A stretch of 24,468 nucleotides of DNA from a virus, in the UHGV virus genome UHGV-0060065; one strand, 5' to 3'. Position numbers and translations under genes: made by a program. How positions within the stretch are numbered: position 1 is the stretch's first letter; each line of letters opens with the position of its first letter. The notes beneath the pieces were generated by a model. The model saw only the letters and a list, made by a program, of their open reading frames with translations. It was not told the DNA's origin and did not search any database. Positions 6,289-14,192 of the stretch are shown here, one piece after another.

Positions 6289-9111
6289 ATGACGGCAGAG
6301 TACATCAGGGACTGGCAACAACCGCGCCACGCAGTGGGGCGTGAAGGAACGGGGATCCCCGCTCCTGAATCCGCGCTTTCCTCCTGGCTGGATGCCTACC
6401 GGGCAGAGAACGAGCGCCGCCAGGAAATGGCTGATGCGGCGTTCTCCGCCACGCCGCTGGGCAACCTGATTAATAAAAGCCTGGACGCACAGGAAAAACA
6501 GGACAAAACCATCACACTGGCAGGAGACGCCAGAAAACAGGCACGCGGCGCGGTGGATGAAGCCATGGCCTCGCTGCGCCTGCTGCCGTCCTATCTGCGC
6601 GATCCGCTTATTCGCCACCTCTCCTTCCTTCGCAAAAAACAGGAAGCCGATCGCCGGAAAGGCAAAAAGAGCTGGCAGGCGGAACGCTATGCACGCGGAA
6701 CCCTGCGCAAAATATTCGAACGTCTGGATCGCACTGACGGACGCTGGCTGACACCGGGTTATCGCTCCCTTGCCGGACGCGAACGCCTGGACGATTTGCT
6801 TTACCTGCCGCAGCTCAACAAACACCAGATACAGACGCTGGCCACCATGACGGCAGCGATGTTCAGCAGCACCTTCGAAAAACTCTGCGATGGCTTTGGC
6901 GCGACTGATGGCGAACTGACCATGGATGTAACGCTGAAGGCGTATCAGATGCTGGCCCGCATGGCGTTACACCTGCACGCCATGCCTCCACATTATGACG
7001 CACTGACAACAGACAAAGACCGGAGGAACGAACCGGACACAGAGCTGCTGCCGGGCGCAATCCTTCGCCTGACCTGTGCGGAATGGTGGAAACGCAAACT
7101 GTGGCTGTTACGTTGCGAGTGGAGAGAAGAACAACTCCGCGCCGCCTGTCTGGTTTCCAGAAAAACATCGCCCTATCTGAGCCAGGACGCGTTAAGCGAG
7201 TTTCGCGCACAGCGCGAGAAAACACGCGATTTCCTGAAAAGTTTCATGCTGGAAAACGAAGACGGGTTCACGATTGATCTCGAGACAGTGTATTACGCGG
7301 GAGTAAGTAACCCGGTTCACCGTAAGGCAGAAATGATGGCCACCATGAAGGGACTGGAACTTCTGGCCGAAGCCCGTGGCGACAGAGCGGTGTTTCTGAC
7401 TGTCACCTGCCCGTCAAAATACCACGCAACAACGGAGAACGGTCATCCGAACCCCAAATGGAACGGGGCCACCATGCGCGACTCCAGCGATTACCTGGTT
7501 AACACGTTTTTTGCGGCGGTCCGCAAAAAACTGAACCGCGACGGCCTGCGCTGGTATGGCATCCGCACGGTGGAGCCTCACCATGACGGCACCGTGCACT
7601 GGCATATGATGGTCTTTGCTCATCCGGAAGAAATCGACAGCATCGTGGCCATCACCCGCGATATTGCCATTCAGGAAGACCGCCACGAGCTGGGCAATGA
7701 TATTACTCCGCGCTTTAAGGTGGAGTATGTCGACGGCTCAAAAGGCACACCAACCAGCTATATCGCGACCTACATCGGAAAAAACCTGGACAGCCGCGCC
7801 GTGGATGGCATCGACCCGAAAACGGGCAAGCCACGCGTTGACCACGAAACCGGAAAATCAATGGCCGAGAGCGTGGAGCGCGCCATCGGCTGGGCGCGTC
7901 TTCACCGGGTCCGCCAGTTCCAGTTCTTTGGCATCCCCTCCCGTCAGGTATGGCGTGAACTCCGCCGCCTTGCCAGCCAGATGGCACGCAACCCGGAAGG
8001 CCCGCAACGGCTGAAGGATGATGCAATGGATGCGGTACTCGCTGCCGCTGATGCCGGGTGTTTTGCCACCTACATTGAAAAACAGGGTGGCGTACTTGTT
8101 CCACGCAAGGACTACCTGATTCGCACAGCCTACGACCTCGCAGATGAGCTGAACGATTACGGCGAACAGAGTGTACAGATTTACGGGATCTGGTCGCCAC
8201 TCATCGGGGAATCCTCCCGTGTGTGCACGCACCCGGATAACTGGAAGCTGGTAAGACGTAAACCGGAAGCGGAAGACAGCACCCACGAAAATGGTTTTGA
8301 CCTTCAGGGCGGCCCTGCCGCCCCTTGGACTCGTGGCAATAACTGTCCCCGTGTACAGGAAACGGACAACAACGGGACAGAACAGCCGGAAGAACGGCCA
8401 GCACCGTGGCCGCAGCTCCCTGACGGCGTTGAAGTGAACGAATGGATGCGCTCACTGAAACGGCACGAACGCCGGGCGCTGATGCGTTCGCTTCGTGACA
8501 AACAGGCAAAAAACAGCAGCGATGAAATGCAGAGCTGGACACAGAGCCGCAAACAGCAGCGGCCTTTGCCTGATAACCACGAATTACTCGCTAAAGAATG
8601 GCGGGAGTCTGCCGAATCTCTCGGCCTGCATATCGGTGAACAGCAGATGCAGCACCTGTTACGGGGCGGCAGCCTGTACGTTGACGGCAGCATCATTGCA
8701 CCGCAGGGGTTTGAAATTGTACGCAAACCGGATACCCGACCGGACAGCCGGATCACGCAGCTCTGGCAGCGCCTGAGCCGTAACCACGGCGTAAGCAGCA
8801 CGGAGATCCGCCATAACCCGGTCGCAAGCTATCTGGAACAGCTGGGGGCATCAGACCCCGAAGCCGCCGCACGCCTGGCATCCACACTTCAGCAAGACCA
8901 GAACACCATGAAAACACCCGTTACCGTGCTTTCTGACATGCTGCGTGCCATCCGCGACGCAGAGCACGCACAGAGAATCAGTGAAACCACTGAACGCGCC
9001 CGCCGCAAAGCAGACCTGCTGCGGGGTGGCCTGACCATTGGAAACAAAAAACAGACAGAAACGGGATTCACAAATCCCGTAAATGAGCAAAAAACGCGCC
9101 GCGATATATGA
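6289..9111 (+). CDS. A: Rolling-circle replication initiator (P2 gpA-like HUH endonuclease), 940 aa
   Basis: HUH motif (GTVHWHMMVFAH) and paired catalytic tyrosines (TSYIATYIGKN) are present, and the position matches P2 gene A. It is longer than I recall P2 A to be (about 760 aa), with a long C-terminal extension. Confidence 0.88.
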   Translation: MTAEYIRDWQQPRHAVGREGTGIPAPESALSSWLDAYRAENERRQEMADAAFSATPLGNLINKSLDAQEKQDKTITLAGDARKQARGAVDEAMASLRLLPSYLRDPLIRHLSFLRKKQEADRRKGKKSWQAERYARGTLRKIFERLDRTDGRWLTPGYRSLAGRERLDDLLYLPQLNKHQIQTLATMTAAMFSSTFEKLCDGFGATDGELTMDVTLKAYQMLARMALHLHAMPPHYDALTTDKDRRNEPDTELLPGAILRLTCAEWWKRKLWLLRCEWREEQLRAACLVSRKTSPYLSQDALSEFRAQREKTRDFLKSFMLENEDGFTIDLETVYYAGVSNPVHRKAEMMATMKGLELLAEARGDRAVFLTVTCPSKYHATTENGHPNPKWNGATMRDSSDYLVNTFFAAVRKKLNRDGLRWYGIRTVEPHHDGTVHWHMMVFAHPEEIDSIVAITRDIAIQEDRHELGNDITPRFKVEYVDGSKGTPTSYIATYIGKNLDSRAVDGIDPKTGKPRVDHETGKSMAESVERAIGWARLHRVRQFQFFGIPSRQVWRELRRLASQMARNPEGPQRLKDDAMDAVLAAADAGCFATYIEKQGGVLVPRKDYLIRTAYDLADELNDYGEQSVQIYGIWSPLIGESSRVCTHPDNWKLVRRKPEAEDSTHENGFDLQGGPAAPWTRGNNCPRVQETDNNGTEQPEERPAPWPQLPDGVEVNEWMRSLKRHERRALMRSLRDKQAKNSSDEMQSWTQSRKQQRPLPDNHELLAKEWRESAESLGLHIGEQQMQHLLRGGSLYVDGSIIAPQGFEIVRKPDTRPDSRITQLWQRLSRNHGVSSTEIRHNPVASYLEQLGASDPEAAARLASTLQQDQNTMKTPVTVLSDMLRAIRDAEHAQRISETTERARRKADLLRGGLTIGNKKQTETGFTNPVNEQKTRRDI

Positions 9112-9156
9112 AGCGCGCATAAAACAGGCAAAAACGGGATTTCAGAATCCCGTAAA
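9059..9156. repeat. Two 25-bp near-identical direct repeats, each an 8-4-8 palindrome (ACGGGATT-N4-AATCCCGT); candidate parC/operator
   Basis: Copy 1 (about 9059-9083) lies in the last codons of A. Copy 2 (about 9132-9156) lies in the A-parM intergenic region about 30 bp upstream of the parM RBS. The copies match at 21 of 25 positions and start 73 bp apart. Confidence 0.5.
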
Positions 9157-9187
9157 CGATTAATTAATCAACATAAGGAAAAGCGAC

Positions 9188-10147
9188 ATGAAAATTTGTA
9201 TCGACGACGGCTCCACCAACATCAAGCTGGCATGGACTGAGAACGGCGAACGCCGCAACGCCATCAGCCCGAACAGCTTCAAGTCGGAATGGTCTGCGCC
9301 GTTCGGTGGCACGCAGCCCGCGAACTACATGCTTGATGGCGTGCGCTATGGTTTTGATCCGGTCAGCGATCGCTTTGTCCAGACGACCGACACGCAATAC
9401 CAGTACAGCGATGTGAATGTCATTGCCATTCATCACGCGCTGGTCAAATCAGGCATCACGCCACAGGAGGTGGATGTGGTTGTCACCCTGCCACTGAGCG
9501 AGTATTTCGACACAAACGCACAGCCGGACATGGCCAACATCAACCGCAAAAAAGCGAACGTTATGCGTCCGGTGGAGTACCAGAACGGCGAAGCATTCAC
9601 TATCCGTAACGTGCGGGTTATGCCTGAATCCATTCCGGCTGGCTTTAAGGCACTGGCTGACATGAGTCCGTTTGAATCCCTGCTGATTGTGGATTTGGGC
9701 GGAACCACGCTGGATGTGGCAAAGGTTCAGGGACAACTGGCAGGTATCAGCCAGGTGTTTTGCGATCCACACGTAGGCGTTTCCCTGATGGCCGATGCCG
9801 TACTGTCGGTGATGGCCACTAACGGTATGCGTACCAGTCACCACATCGCCAACACCATTATCGAACATCGCCATGATGAAGCCTGGCTGCGCCAGCACAT
9901 CCACAATGGCGCGCATTACGACAGCCTGATGGCGGTTATTCGTGAAAAGGAAGAGACACTGAAACAACGCGTGATCCGCGCGCTGGCGGTTTTTTCGGGT
10001 TACGGGCGGGTGATGGTTGTAGGTGGAGGAGCAGAGATTGTGGCACCCGCTATCCGCGAAGCCTGCGGAGTTAATGCGACTTTCATCGCGGACGGGGTGC
10101 CACAGTTTGCTCTGGTTAATGGGCTGTACGCAATGGACAAGGAGTAA
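9188..10147 (+). CDS. parM: Actin-like segregation ATPase ParM/StbA family
   Basis: The translation matches remembered plasmid R1 ParM along its whole length (MKICIDDGSTNIKLAW, ISPNSFK, QYSDVNV, HHAL, VMPESIPAG, LLIVDLGGTTLD, VMVVGGGAE, LVNGLYAM). RBS AAGGAAAAG. Confidence 0.85.
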   Translation: MKICIDDGSTNIKLAWTENGERRNAISPNSFKSEWSAPFGGTQPANYMLDGVRYGFDPVSDRFVQTTDTQYQYSDVNVIAIHHALVKSGITPQEVDVVVTLPLSEYFDTNAQPDMANINRKKANVMRPVEYQNGEAFTIRNVRVMPESIPAGFKALADMSPFESLLIVDLGGTTLDVAKVQGQLAGISQVFCDPHVGVSLMADAVLSVMATNGMRTSHHIANTIIEHRHDEAWLRQHIHNGAHYDSLMAVIREKEETLKQRVIRALAVFSGYGRVMVVGGGAEIVAPAIREACGVNATFIADGVPQFALVNGLYAMDKE

Positions 10148-10151
10148 ACCA

Positions 10152-10463
10152 ATGACGACACCAACCAGACGGATAAGTTTCTATCTGAAGCCCGCCGCCG
10201 TCAAGAACGAAGGCGAAGCATGCGCCTGGCTGGACAGCCTTACACCAGAAGCCCGCAAAAACGGCCAACGTGTGGCTTTTCTGGCCGGGCTGGCACTTCT
10301 GAAAATGAATCCGGCAGAGGCTTACCGACTGGCTGCATGGGCTGACGATGAGGCGTTGTCGGTGACACAAACCAGGACAGAACGCCCCGCGTCACAGCCA
10401 GTATCAACCGCACAGATAACCAGTCAGATGGCCGGAAATATCCGGGCGTTATTTCCCGAATAA
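10152..10463 (+). CDS. parR: ParR/StbB-like ribbon-helix-helix centromere-binding protein (103 aa)
   Basis: An AAGGAG RBS sits 7 nt upstream of the ATG at 10152, which lies 5 nt after the parM stop. The N-terminus (RRISFYLKP...LDSLTPEARKNGQRVAFLAGLALL) and C-terminus (NIRALFPE) resemble R1 ParR. The ORF-track entry 10023..10463 includes a spurious N-terminal extension overlapping parM. Confidence 0.6.
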   Translation: MTTPTRRISFYLKPAAVKNEGEACAWLDSLTPEARKNGQRVAFLAGLALLKMNPAEAYRLAAWADDEALSVTQTRTERPASQPVSTAQITSQMAGNIRALFPE

Positions 10464-10468
10464 CACAA

Positions 10469-10492
10469 CATCAGGGCGCATCCGCCCTGATG
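10469..10492 (+). terminator. Hairpin after parR (CATCAGGGCG-CATC-CGCCCTGATG), terminator-like with a weak U-tract
   Basis: Perfect 10-bp inverted repeat with a 4-nt loop, 6 nt after the parR stop. The following T-tract is poor (ACTTTAAT). Confidence 0.35.
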
Positions 10493-10526
10493 ACTTTAAT
10501 CCGGGAACATAAACAAGGGGGACACA

Positions 10527-10862
10527 ATGCAACACATTGACAGAGAAAAAGCGCAGCGACTGATTGAGCGAATGGAAGCGCTGGCGAAAGAAGAAAATGT
10601 CAGCATCCAAAAAATAGCTGAATGTGGCCAGATAGTTCTTCGTCGTGAAAAAGACATCAAGCAACTGATGTCTGGCGAAATCAGCAAAACATGGACTTCA
10701 GGCAAGAAGACGATTTATTGCAGCTTCTGCAATAAATCCCAGCACAAAGTCATAAAGGTGATTGCCGGACCGTCTGTTTACATCTGCAATGAGTGCGTGG
10801 ATTTGTGCAATGAAATTATCAAGGGAGAAGTGACAGACCATGAAGAAAAAACGCATGAATGA
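10527..10862 (+). CDS. Small protein with a C-terminal ClpX-type C4 zinc-binding domain (zf-C4_ClpX-like), 111 aa
   Basis: Residues about 73-106 ([36 protein letters not shown]) are nearly identical to the E. coli ClpX N-terminal zinc-binding domain ([36 protein letters not shown]), with all four Cys conserved. The preceding 60 aa are unrelated to ClpX. Strong RBS (AAGGGGGA). Confidence 0.75.
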
Positions 10863-10922
10863 CGAATTTGACGGCTTTTAATTTTATCGGGGTGCACTGT
10901 CGCCCCGCACGAGGAAAACACG

Positions 10923-11447
10923 ATGAAAAAATACGAATACATGCTAATGAAAGAAGCACTGCGGGCTGGTCTGGCTCCCTGTCCTGTATCCGTAGAAGCT
11001 GTTGTTGGGAACACGATTTTCCGAACGCTGCGAAATCGCGTATCCGTGAAGATGATTCACCAACCACCCAAATCTACCAGCATGATCTATCTGCCGCTGC
11101 CCGAGGCTATCAAACTTATGCGTTCGCTGAAATTTGCGATTTGGATGCAGACACAACTCAACAAAGCGGTGCAAAACACCTTCGTTAAGAAACTGATGCC
11201 GGAGCTTGCTGCCAGAAGTGCAAAATGTACCAGACCCGCACTTCAATTTGATCTGTCATTGATTCAACAAGCTACGGAGGCAGAACTGTACCGCCTGTCA
11301 CCTCTCCATGATGCTCACACGGAAGCCTCAGAAATGTTCCGGCTCATGTTTCAATTTAATTTTGCCGTTCGACGCACACGCATTCAGGTCAATCGCATGA
11401 TGCAGGCGCAGGAAGAGCTGACGCAACACAAAGGAGGCAACCAGTGA
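10923..11447 (+). CDS. Hypothetical protein (174 aa), predicted mostly helical; likely co-transcribed with the ZBD protein
   Basis: ORF with a GAGGA RBS, 60 nt downstream of the ZBD gene. No motif was recognised. Confidence 0.55.
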   Translation: MKKYEYMLMKEALRAGLAPCPVSVEAVVGNTIFRTLRNRVSVKMIHQPPKSTSMIYLPLPEAIKLMRSLKFAIWMQTQLNKAVQNTFVKKLMPELAARSAKCTRPALQFDLSLIQQATEAELYRLSPLHDAHTEASEMFRLMFQFNFAVRRTRIQVNRMMQAQEELTQHKGGNQ

Positions 11448-11619
11448 GCAAAATTGACTATCAGGCATTACGCGAGGCGGCACAAAACTATCAATCGACG
11501 CTGGCGTGGTATGAGGTTGACGCGGGCTAGTTTTGCCGCAAGGATAATTCGTTTCAGCGGGTGATTTTTTGCGCTATCATTCCGGCAGTGGTTCACGATT
11601 ATTGGCAGGAAAGGCAATT

Positions 11620-12213
11620 ATGAGCAGTAAAAAAAATAAAATAACATCTATGGCCGCAGCGCTGGCGGTGGCTCTCGCCCCTGTTCCTGCCAGTAGCATT
11701 GTGCATCATGACTTATCAATCTCCCGGCACAGTACGTCTACGCTATCCCTCCAGGACGTAAAGGATTCTGTGGCATACCTTCCTATTGATGAGGCCACCA
11801 GTTATATGCTTAACCTGGCTGATAGGATGAAGACACACAGGGCAAACCTTCGCATCGAATGGGAAGAAAAGCAGATCCCTATTATTCTGAAAAATCAGAA
11901 AAAAGAGACTCAGGAAGGGTTTGAAAGCCTTTTCCGTCATATTGCGGTATGTGCAAGTTTTGTCGAGGCTGCAAGGGTTGCGCTGAAAAGCGTACCTGAA
12001 AGTAACGCGGAACTGAGAAAAGAGATTGTCGCTTTTGCTCGTTCCGCTGCGACGCTCCGCTATACGATTGAAGATATTTTATCCTTCATTGAAAGCACGC
12101 ATGTGCCGAAGAAAACTTCAGATGCTGATCTGGGTGTTACCGCCGATCAGGTTCGCGCACTTATCCGCAGTGAACATAAAAAGCTGGGCCTTAAAGATCC
12201 AACGTTCCATTAA
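11620..12213 (+). CDS. Hypothetical protein (198 aa) with hydrophobic Ala-rich N-terminus; candidate partner/antitoxin of the downstream YafO-like toxin
   Basis: The internal ATG at 11620 has an AGGAAAGG RBS; the ORF track starts earlier at 11569. The N-terminus (MSSKKNKITSMAAALAVALAPVPASS) is signal-peptide-like. It ends 9 nt before the toxin start. Confidence 0.5.
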   Translation: MSSKKNKITSMAAALAVALAPVPASSIVHHDLSISRHSTSTLSLQDVKDSVAYLPIDEATSYMLNLADRMKTHRANLRIEWEEKQIPIILKNQKKETQEGFESLFRHIAVCASFVEAARVALKSVPESNAELRKEIVAFARSAATLRYTIEDILSFIESTHVPKKTSDADLGVTADQVRALIRSEHKKLGLKDPTFH

Positions 12214-12222
12214 GGCAGGGCC

Positions 12223-12603
12223 ATGATTAAAGTCTCTGTCCACAATGACATAGAACTCCCCGCAGTTGCTCGTAAATATGCACATGCTTTGCAGTCATGG
12301 AAAAACGGCGGATCTTTACCCTCAGTCTTTGGCAACGAAGGGCAGTGGGAAGATAGCGGGCGTCTTCGTGATTCTTTTGTTTTTAAGATTCACATTCGTT
12401 TACCTGATGAACAGCCGTGGCCTGCAAAGCTACCTGCCGCCTCGCGTAAATCAAACAGTTATCTTGTTTACTCCCGCCATTTCTTATATCCAGATAAGTA
12501 TCAGCTAATCAGCATTATGACACCCAATGCGCATGAGTTAGCCCGTACATCCTACATGGCAGAAATTGAGCGCAGAGCAGAAGAGTTCCAGTCTTCTTTT
12601 TGA
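12223..12603 (+). CDS. YafO-like toxin (type II TA, ribosome-dependent mRNA interferase family), 126 aa
   Basis: Similar length to E. coli YafO, with shared motifs: GSLPSVFG vs GVLPDIFG, KIHIRLP vs HIHLANE, SYLVYSRHF vs AHLVYCQGAF, LISIMTPNAHELAR vs LIAILKPEPHKLAR, and the AEEF C-terminus. The alignment is from memory. Confidence 0.6.
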   Translation: MIKVSVHNDIELPAVARKYAHALQSWKNGGSLPSVFGNEGQWEDSGRLRDSFVFKIHIRLPDEQPWPAKLPAASRKSNSYLVYSRHFLYPDKYQLISIMTPNAHELARTSYMAEIERRAEEFQSSF

Positions 12604-12645
12604 GTTTTGCGACGACTATCTATCAATCCCTTACTAATCTGAAAA

Positions 12646-12672
12646 GCTGCCTTTTGAAGGCGGCTTTTCTTT
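12646..12672 (+). terminator. Intrinsic terminator after the YafO-like gene (GCTGCC-TTTTGAA-GGCGGC followed by TTTTCTTTC)
   Basis: GC-rich stem with one G-U pair followed by a T-rich tract, about 40 nt after the stop. An A-run precedes it, so it may act in both directions. Confidence 0.5.
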
Positions 12673-12759
12673 CTTCCTGGCCTTCTTTCTCTGTTGCACA
12701 ATAGTGCACAAATTTGCACAATTTTTTTGAACGACTTTTTACCCTTCCGGCCCGCATGG

Positions 12760-13000
12760 CGGCTGGATCCGTCAAGGATCCGTGCGCGCACAAAAAAACG
12801 CGCTTTTTCTGCGCGCAGGTGACGGGGGAACAGCCCGCGTTTCAGGGGGTAAATAGCATCCCCTGAATGATGTCGCAGCGACACAACAGAATGGCTGTCT
12901 TTCTCACGCTGAGCGTGAAGAATACGTGAGGGATTCTGATTTGATGGAGTGAAAGGTAAGGCCGTCAAAATCGCACTGAGGCGGCGAGAACATGCAGTCA
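12760..13000. other. cos / packaging region (candidate cohesive-end site and terminase-recognition repeats)
   Basis: The position between the cargo and the Q stop matches P2 cos. It is dense in repeats: GGATCCGT direct repeat, GTGCGCGCAC palindrome, a 13-bp imperfect inverted repeat GCGCGCACAAAAA/TTTTTCTGCGCGC, and TTCAGGGG-N11-CCCCTGAA. A GC-rich motif GAGGCGGCGAGAAC at about 12978-12992 partly resembles the P2 cos core as I remember it. Confidence 0.4.
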
Positions 13001-13094
13001 GCGCAGTGGGATTGCGTAAGAGTCTGACCGTCGATGATGGCAATAAGCAGGAAAGCGTCGTGAAATTATCTGACTGATACAGGAGCTGGAGAGT

Positions 13095-13119
13095 CGGGGC
13101 ATAAATTTTTTATGCCCCG
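13095..13119 (-). terminator. Perfect 11-bp inverted repeat (CGGGGCATAAA-TTT-TTTATGCCCCG) just downstream of Q; probable terminator of the P-Q operon
   Basis: Palindrome about 30 nt beyond the Q stop on the minus strand. The stem-loop is AT-rich in the middle. Confidence 0.4.
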
Positions 13120-13145
13120 GCGAAGCAGCAGACAAGCGAAGCGCG

Positions 13146-14192
13146 TCAGGATGTGGGCTGGGTATCTAACAGTGCGTAAGGGTTAAAGCGGATCACCTCT
13201 TCGCCAAGCCAGTCATTGATGTGCTTCATGGCCTCCATGACGGGCATCAGCTCGTTAATTGCGTAAACCCGCGCGGCCTTCTCCACATCACCAAACGCAC
13301 TTTTTTCGCCCGGCATCGCCCCCATCAGTTGCGGCGGAACGCGGTGCGCAGCCAGCACATCATCACGGGATGCCGCCTTAACATTCATGAACTCATCTTT
13401 TGCGGTGATCTGCTGGAACGGCAAAATTTGCACCCCCTCTTTGCCCCCGTTGGGCGCATGAATGAGCACGTTTTTAAACGCACCACCACCACGTGCCCCC
13501 TGTAGCGTTTCTTTCAGGGAGTCCATGCTTTCGCGGTTTACCTGCGCTGCACCGATGTAGATGATGCACCCGGCGTGGGATCCGTTGTCGTAGTACAGTT
13601 TTCTGAACATGTCCGCCGAATGAGAAAGGCTGGCCGAGAGTAATGCGCCAAGATATTCCGGCATGCCGTAGATTTCCTGGTTAATATCCGGATTCATCAG
13701 GTGGCACACTTTGCCAGGACGAAACTGGAACGCGTCCTTGCCATCCTGCACATACCACCATGATTCAAGATCGCTTCCGCGTCGCATGTATTTCGCCAGG
13801 GCGTGCCGTAATTTAAGCGGTTCGCCGAGCATATTGCTTCGAAGCTCAAGGAATGCGTTACCGAACACAAACCAGTCCAGCGCCAGCGCCGAGAAATCCT
13901 GCCGGGAAAGCAGCGGGTGCGGGATGTAGCAACCGAGTAATACATTGCGCTTAAAGTAAAGCGCAGACTGATGCCAGGACGTTTGCCGGGCAGCTCTTGC
14001 CAGACCGTACCAGTCCACCGGGGTTTCATACCACCGCCCGTTATCAGCACAGTACATATTGTCCAGCAGGTCATGCCCGGTCAGGCGATAAGGACCATCA
14101 AATGTGAATGCACTGAGCGATGATTCTTTCCTGAGCGCATCAGCGAGATCAATGCGTGAACTCATGCGCACTTTTTTATTTTTTCTGCTCAT
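13146..14192 (-). CDS. Q: Portal (capsid vertex) protein, P2 gpQ-like
   Basis: 348 aa, close to P2 Q in length. It sits immediately downstream of and overlapping terminase P on the minus strand, adjacent to cos. Confidence 0.88.
   Translation of the reverse strand: MSRKNKKVRMSSRIDLADALRKESSLSAFTFDGPYRLTGHDLLDNMYCADNGRWYETPVDWYGLARAARQTSWHQSALYFKRNVLLGCYIPHPLLSRQDFSALALDWFVFGNAFLELRSNMLGEPLKLRHALAKYMRRGSDLESWWYVQDGKDAFQFRPGKVCHLMNPDINQEIYGMPEYLGALLSASLSHSADMFRKLYYDNGSHAGCIIYIGAAQVNRESMDSLKETLQGARGGGAFKNVLIHAPNGGKEGVQILPFQQITAKDEFMNVKAASRDDVLAAHRVPPQLMGAMPGEKSAFGDVEKAARVYAINELMPVMEAMKHINDWLGEEVIRFNPYALLDTQPTS

Follow-up and report, generated by a model that had tools for sequence, protein, structure and literature searches.

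A two-layer A–Q hotspot, with a near-core partition cassette and a variable cos-proximal slot, as the probable organization of a P88-like Escherichia coli prophage locus

What fills the interval between the replication gene A and the cos region of this prophage, and which of the genes found there are movable cargo? The DNA analyzed here (the window, a stretch of 24,468 nucleotides recorded as virus genome UHGV-0060065) is a P88-like E. coli prophage whose nearest phage records are P88 and its relatives (95–97% identity), and which encodes an integrase and a repressor. On the left lies gene A (6289–9111, + strand), whose product of 940 aa matches Phage_GPA (E 1.6e-130); on the right, the locus is anchored by the portal gene Q (13146–14192, − strand), an open reading frame annotated as a phage portal protein in loci L001–L003. 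All six non-P2 genes that the initial annotation had placed at 9112–12700 are present there on the + strand, flanked as described by A and the cos/portal region, and its equation of this interval with the old/tin position of P2 holds as well. The P2 old/tin locus lies in the same place between the replication and portal genes, next to cos (PMC9122126; also PMC13586616), and conserved flanks with highly variable content are common to both: in the sampled loci, seven different cargo sets occur between conserved flanks, and sister loci carry toxin–antitoxin (TA) or ATPase cargo in the same slot. Unlike the P2 locus, the interval in the window contains no old or tin homologue, and its genes are unrelated to either. 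The A–Q hotspot of P2-like phages was described by Rousset et al. (2022), who found a partition system in about one-quarter of these phages and whose Table S5A lists the exact gene arrangement of the window, the RefSeq proteins of that entry being identical to those of locus L001 (PMC9122126). The interval is thus a well-described accessory hotspot of the P2 family in an arrangement already catalogued, and the hotspot itself is not new.

The genes in this interval differ greatly in how widely they are kept. A census of 5426 complete E. coli genomes gives 1561 with this type of A 3′ end, 1307 with parMR, 170 with the gene for a zinc-binding-domain (ZBD) protein, 30 with a 174-aa gene, and only 7 with a pair encoding a 197-aa protein and a YafO-family toxin homologue. 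The genes parM and parR are kept in 84–94% of the lineage at 96–99% identity, and of the 1372 E. coli records that match, 1288 have parM directly after A in a colinear junction; because of this, parM–parR is near-core backbone of the P88-like lineage and not sporadic cargo. Their inclusion among the variable cargo in the initial annotation therefore does not stand: for these two genes, what is found is conservation within one P2-like subgroup (P88-like, Xuanwuvirus). The cassette nevertheless lies inside a swappable interval, whose left edge in this lineage is at ~9011: in MS20654 (L026), a P88-like prophage without parMR, homology to the window is lost at 9011 and returns at 12694, so that the last ~100 nt of gene A (9011–9111, + strand) are inherited together with the parMR segment.

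Farther right, the left breakpoints in the compared loci are nested (10551, 10859, 11005 and 11475), and the right junction (12691–12721) is fixed, with homology resuming at 12691–12696 in each of the 10 compared loci that retain a right flank of detectable homology. This conserved flank opens with three TGCACAA motifs in exact 10-bp phasing (12695, 12705 and 12715). The comparisons place the real variability between parR and this fixed junction, just left of cos. In contrast to the P2 locus, near-fixed parMR takes up much the greater share of the interval's left part, and the effective hotspot runs from parR to cos. Modular acquisition, as initially proposed, is borne out for this distal part by the nested breakpoints and the single fixed right junction, but not for parM and parR. 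Beyond the junction lies a conserved 52-bp element (12788–12839), which an Erwinia P2-like prophage shares in the corresponding position at 85% identity. A candidate cos core within this element, GGTGACGGGGGAACAGCCC (12818–12836), has 13 of 19 identities to the P2 cohesive-end sequence; a search for the P2 cos sequence gave no match within 3 mismatches.

We consider it highly probable that the locus is a two-layer version, in a P88-like phage (Xuanwuvirus, Peduoviridae) of E. coli, of the cos-proximal A–Q hotspot of P2, with the module roles proposed below. The first layer (~9011–10463) would be an R1-type actin-like partition cassette consisting of candidate parC repeats, parM and parR, fixed in most lineage members and backbone-like, although occasionally replaced. 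The second (~10470–12690) would be the truly variable slot, anchored by the invariant right junction beside the packaging site and built up by one replacement after another from that side; its cargo here comprises genes for the ClpX-type ZBD protein and a 174-aa orphan, followed by a self-contained YafO module of two genes.

The first gene of the cassette, parM (9188–10147, + strand), encodes an actin-like partition ATPase of 319 aa (Pfam StbA_N, E 1.8e-82; ParM C-terminal domain, E 1.7e-68) that matches R1 ParM over its full length (PDB 1mwk, E 4.5e-92). Immediately downstream, after a gap of 4 nt, parR (10152–10463, + strand) encodes a ParR/StbB-type partition adaptor of 103 aa (Plasmid_stab_B, E 2.2e-24; phrog_2515), for which a sequence search of the PDB found no solved homologue. 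At least two parR alleles occur in the lineage: in roughly half of the records DNA homology breaks off at position 10206, and the allele of Ecol_276 is 52% identical, with the N-terminal 18 aa identical. A repeat search recovered two 42-nt direct repeats (9045–9086 and 9118–9159), each with one 20-bp palindrome, ACGGGATT-N4-AATCCCGT (9061–9080 and 9134–9153; hairpin z-scores −5.4 and −3.8); the palindromes lie 73 bp apart and straddle the A stop codon, and the first is imperfect in P88 and Ecol_276. Both repeats lie within the segment that is missing when parMR is missing. With two repeats as its basis, this pair is a candidate parC/ParR operator. The full-length ParM alignment, the small ParR/StbB-family gene next to it and the repeats upstream of parM all resemble R1 ParMRC. 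The differences are that the carrier is an integrating phage and that, in place of short-iteron arrays such as those of R1, or the 10-bp iterons upstream of parM on plasmid R830b, the candidate centromere consists of two widely spaced palindromes, the first of which lies within the coding sequence of A. The cassette would segregate extrachromosomal copies of the phage genome. Of the 1455 parMR places in E. coli, 1453 lie on chromosomes, and the phage has an integrase, so that no substrate for such a system is obvious except in transient episomal states.

The first gene of the variable slot (10527–10862, + strand) encodes a protein of 111 aa with a ClpX-type ZBD (Pfam zf-C4_ClpX, E 3.1e-17; ClpX ZBD, PDB 1ovx, E 5e-19). 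Its AlphaFold2 model (pLDDT 78.5) consists of an N-terminal two-helix hairpin, a flexible linker and a C4 zinc-binding domain that superposes on 2ds5 and 2ds8, the latter a complex of the ZBD with the SspB tail, to within 0.6–0.7 Å at 73–76% identity. All four Cys ligands are kept, and the domain is 73–80% identical to the ZBD of host ClpX, a degree of identity that is new in the present analysis. Unlike host ClpX, the protein is free-standing and encoded in a phage hotspot, has a different N-terminal two-helix hairpin, and lacks the AAA+ ATPase module, the NCBIfam ClpX models matching at model positions 3–53 only. It would compete or pair with the N-domain of host ClpX.

Partition genes and a ClpX-like domain side by side could also be read as parts of a plasmid-style maintenance suite, in which ParMRC partitions an episomal prophage, the YafO pair (phd/doc in sisters) kills segregants and the ZBD protein tunes ClpXP, a protease of the class reported (Lehnherr and Yarmolinsky, 1995) to break down antitoxins, P1 Phd among them. 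We regard this as unlikely, although the closeness of ParM to R1 ParM, the joint presence of parMR, the ZBD gene and phd/doc in one sister prophage, and the dimorphism of ParR, as is often seen for partition-specificity genes, are all in keeping with it. One complete P88-like genome is even deposited as a 34.5-kb circular 'plasmid' record, but this may be merely an excised or replicating genome, and the almost uniformly chromosomal places, together with the integrase and repressor, argue against stable episomal life. The ZBD gene, moreover, also occurs in the A–Q hotspots of further P2-like lineages, which lack parMR and have no TA pair beside this gene. Plasmid maintenance has been raised as a possibility before (PMC9122126).

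The hairpins described in the initial annotation are confirmed in part. A GC-rich hairpin with a 10-bp stem follows parR (10469–10492; −18.4 kcal/mol, z −4.7); it has no U-tract on the + strand and is terminator-like only when read on the − strand. The YafO module is closed by an intrinsic-terminator-like hairpin (12641–12669, + strand) with a 13-bp stem and a U-rich tail (−19.1 kcal/mol, z −3.9). These two strong hairpins agree with the earlier description, but the one between the ZBD and 174-aa genes is insignificant (z −1.4). A consensus promoter scan called no sigma-70 promoter in 8900–13200, and the 'at least three transcription units' are not demonstrated.

The second cargo gene (10923–11447, + strand) encodes the 174-aa orphan, which has no match in Pfam, PHROG, NCBIfam or PADLOC and whose family comprises only 8 clusters among 5.8 billion proteins. 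In the sister prophages ETEC4090 and L024 it is followed by a full Ead/Ea22 gene, which would be its usual companion. At the corresponding place in the window lies a feature overlooked in the initial annotation, an Ead/Ea22-like stub of 28 codons (11444–11530, + strand; Pfam Ead_Ea22, E 1e-5), whose 26.6 bits fall just below the Pfam cut-off of 27 bits; the L001 copy appears in RefSeq as an incomplete ead/Ea22-like gene. Its first 11 codons are identical to those of the full 174-aa Ead/Ea22 gene of ETEC4090, homology stops at 11475, and the segment 11427–11487 matches lambdoid/Stx phages at 89–94%. Arrival of the YafO module would have deleted the Ead/Ea22 gene except for these 28 codons, the stub being the insertion scar.

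The module itself spans 11552–12603 by homology. Similarity to a Buttiauxella copy begins at 11552, where the first ~30 nt are ~90% conserved and the flanks diverge; this 5′ leader (11552–11619, + strand) may hold a promoter or operator (TTTCAG-N17-TATCAT), which the consensus promoter scan did not call. The unknown gene first described as 198 aa is present, but encodes 197 aa counted from its ATG (11620–12213, + strand); its product, a putative antitoxin or regulator, matches no family above cut-off. Nine nucleotides past its stop begins a gene for a YafO-family toxin homologue of 126 aa (12223–12603, + strand; Pfam YafO_toxin, E 2.3e-27) that is 34% identical to K-12 YafO (E 1e-13), with residues K27, H57, E63, R75, H104 and R108 invariant. 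Its match to NCBIfam PRK09885 (E 4.9e-16) is below the equivalog cut-off (59 versus 153 bits), so that we treat it as a member of the family and not as an orthologue. In six of six divergent contexts (Erwinia, Buttiauxella, Serratia and three metagenomic or other), four of them in A–Q hotspots, a YafO-family gene comes directly after the 197-aa gene, either 9–11 nt away or overlapping it by 4 nt, and the partner diverges faster than the toxin (47–63% versus 63–82% identity). The pair is thus a strictly linked two-gene module, a finding new in the present analysis; Rousset et al. list it in Table S5B as system 123, 'YafO_toxin', with both protein sequences and 24 occurrences, and there it stands as a catalogued system, no test of the pair having been found (PMC9122126).

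In having an upstream partner tightly coupled to a downstream YafO-family toxin, the module resembles YafN–YafO of the E. coli dinB operon. The difference lies in the partner, where an upstream RelB/Phd-type antitoxin of the YafN kind is replaced by a protein of 197 aa that has no similarity to YafN (E 49) or match to any antitoxin family. Its family is tiny and confined to Enterobacterales prophages, and combines a conserved N-terminal MAAALAVALAPVPASS, a variable linker, a three-helix bundle and a C-terminal helix; this helical-bundle fold is uninformative, and no DNA-binding domain matches the family. The N-terminus, with a basic n-region, a hydrophobic Ala/Leu/Val stretch and a VPA/ASS motif, is signal-peptide-like throughout the family. 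A YafO partner unrelated to YafN and with such an N-terminus is likewise new in the present analysis. Beside system 123, the entry in Table S5B bears the remark 'protein 1' (PMC9122126), which may refer to a signal peptide or a transmembrane segment, as a prediction.

These properties of the partner also suit a different reading, in which the 197-aa product is exported to the envelope and has its own task there (superinfection exclusion and lysogenic conversion being examples), control of the YafO-like gene lies elsewhere and the two are no classical type II TA system. The export-like N-terminus, the dissimilarity to known antitoxins and the lack of a DNA-binding domain match speak for it. We nonetheless think it improbable, given the strict linkage to YafO with close spacing or overlap in every divergent context; the hydrophobic segment, furthermore, is better conserved than the linker beside it, a pattern that would be uncommon in an ordinary signal peptide. 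Two further readings are put forward more speculatively. The pair may be a new kind of prophage module, for defense or addiction, whose ribosome-dependent mRNA endonuclease is controlled by an exported or envelope-associated protein with a helical-bundle fold in place of a cytoplasmic antitoxin that binds DNA, and the ZBD protein may be a phage-captured ClpX N-domain decoy that blocks ZBD-dependent recognition of, for example, antitoxins or MuA- and lambda-O-type substrates; we hold these to be quite doubtful. It is very unlikely that the 3.5-kb segment as a whole is anti-phage cargo recently acquired in modules to fill the old/tin slot, since its place between A and cos in a documented defense hotspot, its rare, breakpoint-bounded distal genes and the TA or ATPase cargo of sister loci are set against a parM–parR that is near-fixed, homologous to a plasmid partition system rather than a defense system and, by its colinear junction with A, ruled out as such cargo, and PADLOC profiles, the defense annotation run over the island, matched none of its seven proteins.

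Within the preferred two-layer organization, the YafO-family protein would be a ribosome-dependent mRNA endonuclease held in check by its co-translated 197-aa partner, arrest by the toxin and neutralization by the partner being suggested by gene order, coupling and strict co-occurrence. If the 197-aa protein is exported, it could not neutralize a cytoplasmic toxin directly. The pair would act as an addiction and/or abortive-infection unit, to the benefit of the prophage.

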